In this document: piece by piece, positions 27,781 through 63,738 of the stretch | How positions within the stretch are numbered: position 1 is the stretch's first letter | Layout: each line of letters opens with the position of its first letter | Origin: Candidatus Zixiibacteriota bacterium | Lineage (GTDB): Bacteria > Zixibacteria > MSB-5A5 > RBG-16-43-9 | Length of the DNA stretch: 64,000 bases | NCBI GenBank assembly: GCA_030692925.1 | Contig: JAUYBY010000101.1 | Span: forward strand, 3,663 to 67,662 | Reading direction: 5' to 3' | Position numbers and translations under genes: made by a program | Notes under the pieces: generated by a model | The model's input: only the letters and a program-made list of their open reading frames with translations | Database searches by the model: none | What the model was told of the DNA's origin: nothing

Positions 27781-27870
27781 GGAGAGGTGCCGGAGTGGTT
27801 GAACGGGACGGTCTCGAAAACCGTTTACCCCTTACGGGGTACGGGGGTTCGAATCCCCCCCTCTCCGCCA
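27781..27870 (+). tRNA. tRNA-Ser (anticodon CGA)
   Basis: acceptor GGAGAGG/CCTCTCC; anticodon stem ACGGT/ACCGT with loop CTCGAAA; long variable arm; T-arm GGGGGTTCGAATCCCCC; encoded CCA. Confidence 0.85.
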
Positions 27871-27888
27871 TATTTTTTAAGATTTTAC

Positions 27889-27917
27889 TTGACAAGAAGT
27901 TATAAGATAGCTATATT
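27889..27917 (+). promoter_or_regulatory. sigma-70-like promoter for integrase (TTGACA-17-TATATT)
   Basis: TTGACA 27889-27894 and TATATT 27912-27917; followed by dyad-like repeat ttgtgccagatttgtgccac (27921-27940). Confidence 0.5.
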
Positions 27918-27958
27918 AGGTTGTGCCAGATTTGTGCCACAATTTTTGAGGCTATCTT

Positions 27959-29074
27959 ATGGGAAGAATATATCAGAGAGGCGACATTTACTACATTGAC
28001 TATTCTGTCAATGGCCTCAGGATAAGGAAGAAAATAAGCAAATCCAAGCGGGTTGCTGAGCTTGCGCTGAAGGATGTTGAAGTAAAACTCGCCAAAGGTG
28101 AAATAGGGATAGTGGAAAATGATTACGCTATCCCTGATTTTTTTCAGGAATATCTGGTCTTCTCTAAGACCAACCATTCAGATAAAACCTTTTTGAGATA
28201 CCGAGTCATAATAGATCATTTCCTTCACTTCTTGGAGAGACATCCTCGGATACACCATCTCTCAGATTTAAACCCTAAGCTGTTTGAAGACTACAAGACC
28301 TGGAGGAGAACCAAACACGTTATGCCCAATGGACAGCCTGTGTTTGAAGGAGAACCAGTGCCAAAAACAGCCAGACTTGGTGCCAAGGCAAACACCATCA
28401 ATATGGAGTTGGGGACCCTGCGGACCATCATGAATCAGGCAATCAAATGGGGATACCTGAAGGAAAACCCCACCAGAGGTGTAAGTATGCTCAAGGTCAA
28501 TGATTCCAAAAAGCCCAGGTTTCTAACCGAGCAGGAGTGCAAGAAGCTTCTGGACGAGTGTGGTGCGGAGCTTCATCCTATATTTTACACCTTCCTCAAT
28601 ACCGGGATGAGATTGTCTGAGCTGATAAACTTGACCTGGGATGACATAGATTTCATGAGGAAGAAGATAAAGATCCAGACAAAATCCTTCTGGCATCCGA
28701 AGACTGGTGAGCGGGAAATACCTATGAACAAGGGGATGGAGGAGCTTTTAACCGGTCTGCAGAAAAGGAAGAAGAAAGCCAGCCAGTTTGTGTTTCATCT
28801 CAAGAACGGTCCAAAGATCCCGGATAACTATCTAAGGAAGAAGTTGATTGTCATTGCCAAAAGATGTGGCTTTTCCGATGTAACCAAGATTCACTCTTTA
28901 AGACACACCTTTGCCAGTCATCTGATAATGAAAGGGGTTGACCTTCCCACCGTTCAAAAGCTAATGGGTCACTCTGATATTCAAACCACTATGATCTATT
29001 CACACTTATCACCTGACCATCTCGTAGCTGCGGTTGATAAGCTTTCTTTCTTATCCGGTGATGAAGAAGATTAG
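27959..29074 (+). CDS. int: tyrosine-type integrase (phage integrase family), island integrase at tRNA-Ser
   Basis: 371 aa; R...HxLRH...Y catalytic region (HSLRHTFASHL...IYSHL); begins 89 bp after tRNA 3-prime end. Confidence 0.9.
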   Translation: MGRIYQRGDIYYIDYSVNGLRIRKKISKSKRVAELALKDVEVKLAKGEIGIVENDYAIPDFFQEYLVFSKTNHSDKTFLRYRVIIDHFLHFLERHPRIHHLSDLNPKLFEDYKTWRRTKHVMPNGQPVFEGEPVPKTARLGAKANTINMELGTLRTIMNQAIKWGYLKENPTRGVSMLKVNDSKKPRFLTEQECKKLLDECGAELHPIFYTFLNTGMRLSELINLTWDDIDFMRKKIKIQTKSFWHPKTGEREIPMNKGMEELLTGLQKRKKKASQFVFHLKNGPKIPDNYLRKKLIVIAKRCGFSDVTKIHSLRHTFASHLIMKGVDLPTVQKLMGHSDIQTTMIYSHLSPDHLVAAVDKLSFLSGDEED

Positions 29075-29267
29075 AGGATATATCTTTCACAGTTCTTGCC
29101 TTAACTTCCTTTTCAGACAGCCATTTTAGAATAGTCTCTCGGTTAAAACGCACATGCCTACCTATCTTTATATGCGGGATATATTCAATATGCGTCCAGT
29201 AATAGATAGTAGATACTGGAACTGACAGCAGTTGGTTTAATTCCTGTGGAGTTAAAAGCTTTTCCAT
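28989..29267 (-). CDS. excisionase/AlpA-like HTH DNA-binding protein
   Basis: 92 aa; HTH_17-like LSVPVSTIYYWTH...GRHVRF. Confidence 0.55.
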   Translation of the reverse strand: MEKLLTPQELNQLLSVPVSTIYYWTHIEYIPHIKIGRHVRFNRETILKWLSEKEVKARTVKDISSNLLHHRIRKKAYQPQLRDGQVISVNRS

Positions 29268-29332
29268 ATTTATGATCTTATCTTCAAGCCTTGGTTGACC
29301 AAGGCATAACTCGATTCATATTCTTAAGTTGT

Positions 29333-60668: not shown

Positions 60669-61044
60669 TCTTGACACTGCGTGAGAAATAAAAGGTTGAG
60701 AAGATCACATACCCCTATCCATTCGAAATGGTCTAACAGATTTCCATTGACATTGTTCAGCTCTCCAGTTTAATTTAAGCAAAGGCTTCTAAGAAGATTT
60801 GAAGTCAATTAAAGAGGTTACTGTAGCTCAACCTGCGCTTCCAGGAACGCTTTCTGGCTTCACCTTGTCGACCACGATAAGACTTCTTCAGTCCAGTCTA
60901 ATTTACTAACTCTTAAACTGGACCGAAATATGGGGGCAGGCCAAAAGTATGTTTTTACTTCTGCACTAGAACATCCACAATCCTTTGACAGCATGAAATC
61001 GTATTAAAAAGTAGACATACTAACCGGCTAAGGAGGTGAAAACA

Positions 61045-61125
61045 ATGCCAAAGCCAACAGATAAATGCCCGTGCGGGTCAGGAAAAGTATATAAGGAGTG
61101 TTGCGGCAAGCCCAAGAAGAAATAA
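61045..61125 (+). CDS. SEC-C-motif metal-binding micro-protein (26 aa)
   Basis: AGGAGGTGAAAACAATG RBS; CPCGSGKVYKECCG SEC-C/YecA-type motif. Confidence 0.55.
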   Translation: MPKPTDKCPCGSGKVYKECCGKPKKK

Positions 61126-61785
61126 AGAGAATCAAGTAGGGGTGTATAAGCCATACGCCCCTACGCTATTTTCACAGGAATATGATTAATCAAACCCGCC
61201 CGAAGTAAGAGCCAGGGGGCTTGGTTTGCAAATTATCAAAGGATAATAGGTCAAAAGAAATGAAAGTAGCACCAAGAGAGGCAGGGTTCTAAGCCTTCGA
61301 AGGATAGTATCCAACGCCCTAAAATGTATGTCGACTTACCCCTGTCCATCTAATTACCAATTGATAAATTCCCAAGAATAACCCCCCATCCCACCTGACA
61401 GTATTTTGACATTGCGTGTAGAGAGAGAATCTACTCTATAAGACTCCCTATATGTCTCCCTTATGAAATAGGGAGTAGCGCAGGAAGATACCTTCGAGGG
61501 GTAGTTTTTCTCTCCCAAAATATATGTCAACTCACCCCTCGTGTATTCTCTTTTGGTTTAATAAATTACAAAAAATAACCCCCCCGTCTGTTCCAGCTAA
61601 TGATATTTTTACGCAGTGATAGGCATAGGTAGGAGTATATTCCCGTGCCTCAAATATGCCTCATTTCAAGTTGGATTATCTTGGATTATGGTGGGTTATT
61701 ATGGATCTTCGAGAATCTAAGCGATTTCTTGTCTACCTTGCTAATAGCTTTAAAAAAAGAGTTCCCAGGCCCTCCCTATGTGCAT

Positions 61786-62442
61786 TTATAACCAGCCTTT
61801 ATCCTGCCAGAATTCATATTCTTTTTTCCAATCATCTTTTCTTGATTGCATTATTCTTTTGAAGTGCTCCCTGCCTGCCTTGATGATTTTCATCTGATCA
61901 GCAAATACCCTTTTCTCTTTTATATCTTGGACCAGTTTTTTACCCAATTGATACGCATCCTCTAGCTTATCTTTTACAGCATATGCTGCAGATGATACGC
62001 CTCCGGAATACTGTGCACCGCAGGTATGAGCATAATATTCAATATAATCCAGGACATTTTTGTCTTGACCGCTTCCTGAGGAAACCACACCTGTAACGTA
62101 TTTATCTAAAAGCCGCTTACAATGTATAAAGTGACTTGAGCGGTCAAAGAACGTCTTCATTGAGCCGCTAACCTGATTTATATAGTTAGGCGAGGCTAGA
62201 ATTATACCATCGGCATCAAGCATCTTTTTTAGTACCCAATTGACATCGTCTCTTATTGAACAGGCAAGAATCTTCTTATGACAAGCTTCGCAATGATGAC
62301 AAAATTCAATTTTTAAATCGCATAAATGGATTATTTCAGATTCAGTCTTTTTAATATTACAGCCCCTCAAGACCTCTTTCGCCAAAAGAAAGGTGTGACT
62401 TTTTGCTTTACGGGGACTCGAAGATATGAGTAGAAGTTTCAT
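61786..62442 (-). CDS. iron-sulfur flavoprotein / NADPH-dependent FMN reductase family
   Basis: 218 aa; flavodoxin-like fold N-terminus MKLLLISSSPRK, Cys cluster CxxC..CxxC (CHHCEACHKK). Confidence 0.65.
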   Translation of the reverse strand: MKLLLISSSPRKAKSHTFLLAKEVLRGCNIKKTESEIIHLCDLKIEFCHHCEACHKKILACSIRDDVNWVLKKMLDADGIILASPNYINQVSGSMKTFFDRSSHFIHCKRLLDKYVTGVVSSGSGQDKNVLDYIEYYAHTCGAQYSGGVSSAAYAVKDKLEDAYQLGKKLVQDIKEKRVFADQMKIIKAGREHFKRIMQSRKDDWKKEYEFWQDKGWL

Positions 62443-62633
62443 AACGATCTCCTCTAAATCTAACTAATTGATTCCCAACTCTTTATTGTTGGAGCAACCA
62501 CCAGGCCATGACCATATTTCCGCATTGTAGTTAGGCTACGTATTCTTCAGACTTCATGTTGGAGGCATCCACGTGGTATCACGAGCACCGACTTCAGATT
62601 TAATGCTGGATTTGTTTACCCCACTGTAGTAAT

Positions 62634-62834
62634 ATGCGGGGCGATGCTAATGGGGATGGAAAGAGGACAGTTTCAGATGCTGTGTACCTGATAAACTATC
62701 TGTTTAAGGGCGGTCCAGCTCCTGTTCCCGTCTTGCGGCCTGGAGATTGCAATTGTGATGGTAAAGTGAATGTAGCTGACGTAGTATACTTAATAAATTA
62801 TCTCTTCAAAGGCGGTCCACCACCAGCTTGTTAA
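62634..62834 (+). pseudogene. dockerin-type-I-like repeat fragment (two Ca-binding repeats), likely gene remnant
   Basis: DANGDGKRTVSDAVYLINYLFKGGPAP and GDCNCDGKVNVADVVYLINYLFKGGPPP; in-frame stops immediately upstream; similar single-repeat fragment at 60490-60592. Confidence 0.45.
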
Positions 62835-63738
62835 GAGCTAAAGAAAATTTTGGTAACCCAAGGGGACAGATATTTGTGAGCTGTCCCCTTGCTTTTTCCA
62901 ACCTGAAAATATTTTGACACCCTGTGCGTAGTGAGGAAAGGAAATAGTGTAAACATGGTCGGGGTAAACTTAACTTGGGACCATGAAACAGGTTCTAACC
63001 TCAGCAAGATGGGGGAGAGGATAATCTTGGAAATTCTCTAGAATCTCATAAAAATCATCGAAAGCTTTTTGTGCCTAATTTGTGCCTAAAATAAGTCAAA
63101 ACAAGCCAAAATGTGCAAGATTCCCTTTTTTGGTTTACTTTGGCTTATTTCGGTTTAATTTACTCTGTTTATTTAACTTAGGAACCTTTCTATTGACTTT
63201 ATTTCCTAAGTCATTATCTTTCTTTATGCCTGTCCCCGCCCTTTCACGGCGGCAACACGAGTTCAAATCTCGTTGGGGACATTTTTATTATCCAAGTTAG
63301 GTAAGAAGCAACCCTCTAAACAACAAGAACTTAACCAAAATAAACAGAAGCCAAGCAAACGAAAATCAAAATAACTTTTTTGGATTGTTTTGACTTGGGT
63401 ACGGCACAAATTTGGCACGACATAGTATTGCTGTCCTACAACCCTCTGTTAAGGAAAAAATTAAAAAAATAAGCGGAGGCTGGGATTCCTCGGCGGTGTC
63501 AATGTAAGTTTCTCTTCACCTTTAGATTATGAGCTAAATCTTTGTTTTTTTTGAATTTGGTTTTTTTGTTTGTTTGTGTTTCTTTATGTCTTTTGTGTCT
63601 ATCTATACGTTGTTTGGACACTAAAAAAGAACGTGATTGTCTTTACCTGAGCTTTTTCTCTACAACAAAGATTCTTCAGGTCGCCTGATGAATATATCAA
63701 AAAAATCTTCAGAGGGGTTTAAAATTTATTGTCCTTTT

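Follow-up and report, generated by a model that had tools for sequence, protein, structure and literature searches.

The 64,000-nt stretch of DNA analysed here (the window; Candidatus Zixiibacteriota bacterium, assembly GCA_030692925.1, contig JAUYBY010000101.1, positions 3,663-67,662 of the forward strand) is part of a metagenome-assembled genome (MAG) of the Zixibacteria and appears to contain a genomic island behind its sole intact tRNA gene, tRNA-Ser(CGA) (27781-27870, + strand; ARAGORN; Rfam tRNA, 58.9 bits). We consider it probable that this is a composite, decaying tRNA-Ser-associated defence island, the backbone of which derives from a family of tyrosine integrases and the right side of which has been remodelled. 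To judge from relatives and from composition, the approximately 35.6 kb that follow the tRNA are foreign, horizontally acquired DNA with an exact left end, because homology to related genomes stops at 27870, because the island proteins are absent from these relatives and because the composition is shifted from approximately 29 kb onwards. The right boundary is only bracketed, between 59974 and 63738, with relics of attachment (att) sites at 63067-63490.

The left junction and the integrase family

Zixibacteria relatives were identified by scanning species-representative genomes with the 160-residue protein encoded upstream of the tRNA, and L003 (RBG_16_43_9), L004 (a complete Zixibacteria chromosome), L005, L006 and L100 (a 212-kb contig) were compared at the tRNA-Ser locus. 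L003 is collinear with the window from 18181 to 27870 at 92-97% identity (96.7% up to the end of the tRNA), and L100 matches the window from 21187 to 27870 at 82-90% identity (90.5% at the left junction). Both matches stop at 27870, the homology of L006 likewise terminates at this last base of the tRNA, and against all three loci the left junction is 27870/27871. A first-pass annotation of the region had proposed that accessory DNA is inserted at tRNA-Ser(CGA), and had suggested a k-mer profile as a check. Both the end of the homology to L100 and L003 and the profile bear this out: the tetranucleotide correlation to the core (1-27.7 kb) amounts to 0.84-0.95 across 1-28 kb versus 0.67-0.83 in every interval from approximately 29 kb to 64 kb. 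Downstream of the tRNA, tblastn detected none of 44 island proteins in L003-L006 apart from a 39-residue integrase remnant in L004, in which a decayed int promoter and the first approximately 35 int codons are present at the same tRNA. Relatives with the same gene content and no integrase, named in the annotation as the case against a mobile island, were not seen among these four loci.

The ancestral gene order is visible in L100 and comprises AsmA, a metallo-beta-lactamase-fold protein, tadA, a 198-residue gene, tRNA-Ser(CGA), a 160-nt spacer, tRNA-Ser(GGA), a 723-residue gene related to the type IX secretion system (T9SS), rnhB and efp. Since tRNA-Ser(GGA) is located within 260-540 nt of tRNA-Ser(CGA) in L100, L003 and L006, an empty site is present in these relatives. 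L003 differs from L100 by a 378-nt insert (L003 9601-9978) with a GIY-YIG open reading frame (ORF) directly after tRNA-Ser(CGA); this insert is absent from the empty-site relative L100. It is bounded by the 3' end of tRNA-Ser(CGA) and by CGAATCCCCCCTCTTCGC, a degenerate 18-nt repeat of the tRNA 3' end, and beyond CGAATCCCCCCTCTTCGC the same ATTGGCGAAT... sequence is found that follows the tRNA in L100. Because this repeat and the shared ATTGGCGAAT... sequence point to approximately the last 19 nt of the tRNA, we assume that the att core at tRNA-Ser(CGA) consists of its last 19-21 nt or so, here on the side of the left attachment site (attL).

The tRNA, promoter and tyrosine integrase that the annotation had listed for the left end hold at their coordinates (ARAGORN, Rfam, Pfam). 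The integrase gene int (27959-29074, +; 371 residues; Phage_integrase 1.3e-33, Phage_int_SAM_5 6e-13) starts 88 nt past the tRNA and is preceded by a near-consensus sigma-70 promoter, TTGACA-17-TATATT (27889-27917, +; 11 of 12 positions). The tandem TGTGCC-AGATT-TGTGCC (27922-27938, +), that is TGTGCC-N5-TGTGCC, follows the -10 box and precedes the ribosome-binding site, and it covers the position where transcription should start. It had been described as a dyad-like motif that occurs at three sites. The positions are correct (27922-27938, +; 63070-63086, +; 63403-63419, -; three copies plus one likely chance match, versus 0.2 expected from shuffles), but the motif is a tandem direct repeat and not a dyad.

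Identity of the window integrase to its nearest counterparts in cultured phages and plasmids does not exceed 28%, and its best match in IMG/VR reaches 42%. A metagenome scan yielded 371 relatives, of which 80 loci (L009-L088) with 49-92% identity were fetched; at a family limit of at least 49% identity over approximately 360 residues the window integrase is a member. In 46 of the 80 loci a tRNA gene of the same strand precedes int at a distance of 66-165 nt (mostly 100-116 nt). This target is Ser-CGA in 14 loci, Ser-GGA in 14, Ser-GCU in 7, Leu-CAG in 7, Gln-CUG in 3 and Met in 1, so that tRNA-Ser accounts for 35. By these loci the family is large, widespread, uncultured and uncharacterised, and it appears to hit the last 20 nt or so of tRNA genes, in most cases tRNA-Ser and otherwise tRNA-Leu, tRNA-Gln or tRNA-Met. 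As a side observation, 29 of the 80 family contigs start at most 260 nt upstream of int and thus break at the tRNA, which fits a presence/absence polymorphism in natural populations.

The spacer between tRNA and int follows a common layout of tRNA end, TTGACA, approximately 17 nt, a TATATT-like box, approximately 10-15 nt, the tandem TGTG(A)CC-N4-TGTG(A)CC, a ribosome-binding site and ATG. The -35/-10 arrangement is shared by most of the 46 related tRNA-int spacers, a tandem heptamer is present at the corresponding site in 39 related loci, and the window carries the full layout of tRNA end, promoter, tandem repeat, ribosome-binding site and int. In the related loci the tandem is usually single and located before int. 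A complete 5-kb member is L081 (elements as small as 5-8.5 kb are known among the related loci), with tRNA-Ser(GGA) as attL and a 21-nt repeat, GA(C)TCCCTGCCTCTCCGCCAG, as right attachment site (attR); a second tandem, TGTGACC-N4-TGTGACT, lies approximately 128 nt to the left of its attR core in the same orientation as the tandem before int. L019 and L039 also have a second tandem repeat downstream of int, while a second motif in L087/L088 sits within a repetitive coding region and was discarded as a chance match. Conservation across loci supports the motif as a genuine site of the integrase system. Because the tandem recurs in the opposite arm of the complete element L081, and because the N-terminus of the integrase resembles an arm-DNA-binding domain (Arm-DNA-bind_4, E 0.0016, model positions 5-45 of 47; 18.4 bits, below the 22.3 cut-off), it is most likely an arm-type (P' arm) binding site of the integrase. 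As the repeat covers the expected int transcription start, it probably also serves as an operator for int autorepression.

The remodelled right side

The annotation had noted the lack of a direct repeat of the tRNA-Ser 3' end, and this is correct: none is present in the window by exact k-mers, by a search with the last 23 nt at up to 3 mismatches or by Smith-Waterman alignment of both strands. A displaced tRNA-Ser 3' fragment, which as a direct repeat delimits the far end of Islander-type islands, is accordingly not found in the window. Neither the junction to be expected on the right side (tRNA-Ser core, ATTGGCGAAT..., tRNA-Ser(GGA)) nor any remnant of tRNA-Ser(GGA) was detected in the window, and the entire ancestral right flank (tRNA-Ser(GGA), the 723-residue gene, rnhB, efp) is absent from it, so that the right flank is not collinear with the empty site. 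The view of the region as one intact mobile unit therefore had to be given up, since the window holds no repeat of the tRNA-Ser core and its right end consists of relics only.

These relics are arranged within and next to an imperfect inverted duplication of approximately 125 nt (alignment score 129 versus 80 +/- 5.5 for shuffles; single-stranded DNA fold z-score -6.9), the left arm of which (63067-63190, +) pairs with the right arm at 63300-63425 (-). The left arm opens with the tandem TGTGCC-TAATT-TGTGCC (63070-63086), which is oriented as the attL tandem and is a candidate P-arm relic. Between the arms lies a 51-nt 3' fragment of tRNA-Glu(UUC) (63236-63286, +) with anticodon arm, T arm and 3' acceptor strand, lacking the 5' acceptor strand and the D arm; all 51 nt align with the L005 tRNA-Glu at 94% identity, and the Rfam tRNA model gives 27.7 bits, under the gathering score of 29. 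The fragment is found 150 nt to the right of the 63070 tandem, compared with approximately 128 nt between tandem and attR core in L081. An inverted, mutated copy of the left end of the island follows at 63490-63403 (-), aligned to 27851-27939 (BLAST to L002, 72.7% over 88 nt, E 1e-5; L002 is one of the short-read contigs from sample SRR13727536 that match the window population). On the minus strand it contains a tRNA-Ser-like 3' end, the 16-mer GAATCCCAGCCTCCGC (63490-63475), a decayed form of the promoter, TTAACA-17-AATACT (63452-63424), and the tandem CGTGCC-N5-TGTGCC (63419-63403); no int gene follows this copy and no tRNA body adjoins it. The right end thus consists of two arm-type tandems head to head around a tRNA-Glu 3' fragment and then an inverted left-end remnant, located at a break in gene order. 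Since related loci normally carry one tandem, before int, the extra copies are left over from one or more further family elements.

Towards the right, the first gene with a clear housekeeping role is hemL, of which the last 86 codons are present (63739-64000, -). Its position at 63.7 kb had been given correctly, but it does not represent the ancestral flank, for which the relatives have tRNA-Ser(GGA), the 723-residue gene, rnhB and efp. In none of the relatives examined is hemL located near the tRNA-Ser locus; homologues of its C-terminus show at most 68% identity, and their neighbourhoods are unrelated and have no nearby tRNA. The adjacency of tadA and hemL, proposed for a synteny comparison, is not ancestral according to the relatives. 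As hemL is no ancestral neighbour, the right side is a break in gene order and no simple insertion end. The proposed right boundary near 63.1-63.4 kb coincides with the att relics, but an attR is missing there, the right side is rearranged and the boundary cannot be placed more narrowly than the bracket given above.

In the course of events that we favour, a family element (backbone 27.87-33.3 kb) would have integrated at tRNA-Ser(CGA), with the int promoter inside attL and the tandem repeat acting as arm site and self-repression operator. A sigma-54 activator of the element would drive an operon of helix-turn-helix (HTH), small-ORF and primase-like genes. The DNA from 33.6 to 63 kb would be cargo or later insertions, comprising two more tyrosine recombinases, an Ssp locus with five further genes, a cyclic oligonucleotide-based antiphage signalling system (CBASS) and a repeat-rich tail. 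Later the right side would have been remodelled by deletion or rearrangement, most plausibly through recombination with a second, related element. We assume this remodelling because an attR with the tRNA-Ser core, tRNA-Ser(GGA) and the ancestral flank are all missing and because att relics are found beside a non-syntenic hemL. With its sspC interrupted by a stop codon, its attR missing and its tail degenerate, the island looks old, decaying and probably immobile, and is no longer a clean excisable unit. Several points weigh against this course of events. No attR was found, and nothing proves that the DNA from 33 to 63 kb arrived together with this integrase. The 63070 tandem may stem from a different related element, as its 25-nt flanks match the inverted sequence at 63378-63418 (83%) and not the sequence on the int side. 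At the expected site of the attR core lies the 51-nt tRNA-Glu fragment, which misfits the tRNA-Ser core of approximately 20 nt that is typical of the family, and the match of the integrase to an arm-binding domain falls under the Pfam threshold. The window ends 260 nt into hemL, the source contig probably extends 4.6 kb further, and a chimeric join is possible in a metagenome assembly.

Four other explanations have to be weighed. It is possible, though we hold it unlikely, that only the backbone from 27.87 to approximately 33.4 kb is the tRNA-Ser element and that the rest belongs to one or more separate elements, one of which entered inverted from the hemL side with 63403-63490 as its left end; the 35.6 kb would then never have been one island. 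The inverted left-end copy indeed adjoins hemL, the genes from 42.4 to 62.4 kb are all on the minus strand, three further recombinase-type features lie inside the region and related elements can measure only 5-8.5 kb. Yet the inverted remnant has neither a following integrase gene nor an adjoining tRNA body, att-like repeats or tandem motifs are absent at 33 kb and 42 kb, and the 63070 tandem stands in direct orientation with the attL tandem. More doubtful in our opinion is an inversion, in which opposite-facing family elements in tRNA-Ser(CGA) and tRNA-Glu(UUC) recombined homologously and the intervening segment flipped, leaving a hybrid island with attL(Ser) on one side, an attR of P arm and tRNA-Glu fragment on the other and hemL as the former tRNA-Glu flank. 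This would account for ends that hold the cores of different tRNAs, for a 63070 tandem oriented like that of attL, for its spacing to the tRNA-Glu fragment (150 nt versus the equivalent 128 nt in L081) and for the lost gene order of the right flank; in L005, moreover, tRNA-Glu is 7 kb away from tRNA-Ser(CGA) and on the opposite strand. However, tRNA-Glu is used by none of the 46 family loci with an upstream tRNA, the family core is approximately 20 nt of a tRNA 3' end whereas the tRNA-Glu fragment of 51 nt starts at the anticodon stem, and both the inverted left-end remnant and the 125-nt palindrome stay unexplained. Similarly doubtful is the joint proposition that the right end is the footprint of an inversion between sister elements in different tRNA genes and that the sigma-54 activator of the element switches an excision/replication operon. 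If true, the former would make this integrase family a source of altered chromosome order in an uncultured phylum, and the latter would be a control logic undescribed for integrative mobilizable elements.

A larger, intact island with its true attR past 64000, in which hemL would be cargo or lie within an inserted segment, is very improbable. The source contig apparently measures 68,645 nt, 4.6 kb past the window, and no attR was found within the window; against this, hemL has a housekeeping function and only one copy, it comes after the att relics of the right end, and no ortholog of the 723-residue right-flank gene is listed on the 68.6-kb contig. We give as little credence to a chimeric assembly, that is, a contig joining unrelated genome regions at or near repeated element sequences. 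The source is a MAG, short-read contigs of the same sample break in the tRNA (L001 ends at approximately 27806, L002 starts at approximately 27843) and the 29 family contigs mentioned above begin within 260 nt upstream of int. But the repeats of the window are only 73-86% identical, a divergence at which an assembler would not be misled, the palindrome has imperfections that assembly artefacts lack, and the island genes int and sspD share a sample with the left flank.

Backbone operon, defence genes and other cargo

Convergent with int are the HTH_17, small-ORF and primase-like genes of the backbone, all on the minus strand. Two HTH_17 genes (28989-29267 and 29333-29560) are excisionase or regulator candidates (Pfam; PHROG 'excisionase and transcriptional regulator'), followed by a 103-residue ORF (29634-29945; homologues in L010 and four other loci), a 505-residue primase-like gene of the archaeo-eukaryotic primase (AEP) type (29991-31508) and a 66-residue ORF (31496-31696) that heads the backbone operon 29634-31696. 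The two excisionase-like HTH genes of the first-pass annotation are thereby confirmed, and its replicase-like gene corresponds to the primase-like one, for which the matches are weak (AEP-TOTE 3.8e-4, PHROG primase 1.2e-6; no match in PDB or NCBIfam). The first HTH_17 gene recurs in L010 (90% identity) and in another 25 family loci. Between L010 and the window, identities amount to 92% for int, 90% for the HTH gene and 51% for the primase-like gene. The latter, like the HTH_17 gene and the 103-residue ORF of the backbone, has homologues beside family integrases in L010, L035, L038 and L077/78.

A perfect sigma-54 promoter, TGGCACGACCCTTGCA (31779-31794, -), is located approximately 83 nt upstream of the operon of 66-residue ORF and primase-like gene, in the interval that separates this operon from the activator gene. 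The sigma-54 regulator that had been annotated in the island is present as a PspF-like activator (bacterial enhancer-binding protein) of 436 residues without a sensor domain (31956-33266, -; Sigma54_activat 2.7e-56). L035 encodes a homologue of this activator at the corresponding position and has a sigma-54 site, TGGCACGGTCTTCGCT (L035 11635-11650, -), between its activator and its primase-like gene. Because motif and position agree in these two family members, we infer that the element-encoded activator may turn on the primase/excision operon from the sigma-54 promoter. A second perfect sigma-54 match lies at 47886-47901 (+), antisense to an NDT-like gene.

Three defence systems had been predicted, of which two are recognisable by their matches, SspBCD with an interrupted sspC and a type II CBASS; from 42.4 to 62.4 kb only minus-strand genes are present. 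The Ssp locus, of the DNA phosphorothioation type, consists of sspB (52903-53913; PADLOC SspB 6.7e-116), sspC (49388-52906; PADLOC SspC 1e-237 and 9.2e-145) and sspD (48595-49395; PADLOC SspD 8.5e-113). A single in-frame TAA (50903-50905) interrupts what is otherwise one sspC gene. The short-read contig L099 of the same population ends 11 nt from this codon, and a polymorphism might be present there. SspA (cysteine desulfurase), SspE and SspFGH gave no PADLOC match among the genes that neighbour sspBCD. Downstream of sspD and in the same orientation follow five genes (42414-48587, -) that encode NDT-like, HATPase_c_3, PC4-like, SF2 helicase and PLD nuclease proteins and have no defence-system assignment. 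The HATPase_c_3 protein is MORC/MzaB-like and the SF2 helicase resembles PbeA and dnd_restrict_1. The gene set may represent a restriction partner not described before, which would recognise phosphorothioate-modified DNA. The CBASS locus (54972-59973, -; Pfam and PADLOC) contains every component of type II, namely a CD-NTase (cyclase 1.4e-151), E1/E2 (Cap2; 2.9e-93), JAB (Cap3; 1.9e-35) and a SAVED-endonuclease effector (1.8e-112; PADLOC values throughout).

Between backbone and defence genes lies an unclassified block of plus-strand genes (33623-41805) for recombinase, 3D and AAA+ proteins: a 3D-domain protein (34299-34946), a Xer-like recombinase (35611-36450), a RuvB-like AAA+ protein (39217-40383) and a tyrosine recombinase of 187 residues that consists of the catalytic domain only (41242-41805). 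The annotation had termed it a phage-like module. A phage origin was rejected because the 33.6-41.8 kb have no relatives in IMG/VR and no structural or packaging match in PHROGs, in which only integrase, peptidase-like and AAA+ matches were obtained; with no capsid, portal, terminase or tail gene among these, the block does not qualify as a prophage. Repeats flanking the block did not rise above the shuffle null, and no tandem motif is present, so that an attR near 33 kb or near 42 kb, the latter named beforehand as evidence for a shorter element, was rejected as well. The 187-residue recombinase has the size of Fim-type DNA invertases; its matches to NCBIfam invertases are sub-threshold, and convincing inverted repeats are absent nearby. 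A 19-nt inverted repeat beside it (41966-41984 / 62056-62074) is probably due to chance since the partner falls within an intact flavodoxin-family gene.

To the right of CBASS the island continues in a gene-poor, repeat-rich stretch (59974-63066) with a dispersed motif of approximately 70 nt, the repeats D2 and D1, a dockerin fragment (60499-60592), the flavodoxin-family gene (61786-62442, -) and a 66-residue dockerin ORF (62634-62834). Copies of the dispersed motif (core TCGTCAAACAAAGTGGACATTT) were found in the window (60194-60270), in L003 (10297-10373), L100 (9661-9737), L101 (139-215) and L059 (3536-3580, -). In relatives it is located upstream of a T9SS protein gene, and it also occurs within another island; it has no Rfam match and no convincing conserved RNA fold. 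The copy at 60194-60270 was considered as a syntenic leftover of the ancestral flank and rejected, as only the core of approximately 70 nt is kept, the flanks differ and a copy is present in the unrelated L059. Two diverged repeat pairs were detected, at 54689-54747 / 60423-60481 (86%) and 60499-60677 / 62742-62920 (77%). The 77% pair spans a dockerin-type C-terminus, a hairpin and a promoter-like box, CCTGAAAATATTTTGACA, which is found again at approximately 61396. Their make-up suggests duplicated or pseudogenised cassettes for small secreted proteins. An ORF of 26 codons, MPKPTDKCPCGSGKVYKECCGKPKKK (61046-61126, +), has a good ribosome-binding site and a likeness to SEC-C-type metal-binding sequences by eye only; it is followed by a terminator-like hairpin with a 12-bp stem (61136-61164). 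Outside the island, in the core region, a 63-nt tandem repeat (2.8 copies, 91% match; 12112-12290) forms the start of a 639-residue ORF (12140-14059).

Significance and comparison with known systems

The left boundary of the island is now fixed to the base, which aids annotation, and the 35.6 kb should not be taken as a single excisable element. The island is of an ordinary kind, composite and degraded, and does not overturn current understanding. The integrase family is abundant and unstudied; it comes from sediment and groundwater metagenomes and has a fixed att/promoter layout and predictable tRNA-Ser/Leu targets. Such a layout could aid the delimitation of islands in MAGs of the FCB group and of candidate phyla as well as the search for new integrases. 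Leads that lend themselves to testing are the Ssp locus, together with the five partner genes that have no assignment, and the backbone operon with its putative sigma-54 control.

Among known systems, the mobilizable elements NBU1 and NBU2 of Bacteroides insert by a tyrosine integrase at the 3' end of tRNA-Leu (NBU1) and tRNA-Ser (NBU2), and excision of NBU1 requires several small genes besides int (PMC5704250). The window family resembles them in its FCB-group lineage, in its Ser/Leu tRNA targets and in the Phage_int_SAM_5 domain of the window integrase; the multi-gene HTH, small-ORF and primase-like operon beside int is also reminiscent of NBU1. The link itself consists of the SAM_5 domain and the choice of targets only. 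Unlike in NBU-type elements, a Pfam scan of 42 ORFs in the interval from the tRNA to hemL matched no relaxase family, and no oriT was recognised, though no search aimed at it was made. The window island also exceeds these elements 3-4 times in size, has defence genes as cargo and lacks the attR, which was lost.

In KplE1 (CPS-53) the int promoter lies within attL and is subject to negative autoregulation by IntS and the directionality factor TorI, an arrangement predicted for most tRNA-associated integrases (PMC2951348). The window agrees with this in an int gene that points away from the tRNA, in a promoter within attL and in putative sites for recombination proteins over the promoter and transcription start. 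It differs in that its integrase family has no sequence relationship to that of KplE1 (integrases of cultured phages reach 28% identity at most) and that the window holds an island and not a prophage; binding and repression are presumed here by analogy. With lambda-type integrases the family shares an att core, arm repeats in both arms (L081) and an N-terminal segment resembling an arm-DNA-binding domain, whereas its arm repeats are direct in both arms and two per arm, and the domain match is below threshold.

Islander-type islands are delimited by a regenerated tRNA and a displaced 3' fragment of it (PMC4383910). The window departs from this type in having a tRNA-Glu fragment where a displaced tRNA-Ser fragment would be expected; in its integrase adjoining an intact tRNA, its foreign composition, its absence from relatives and its clustered Ssp and CBASS genes, however, the tRNA-Ser(CGA) island resembles islands of the Islander type.

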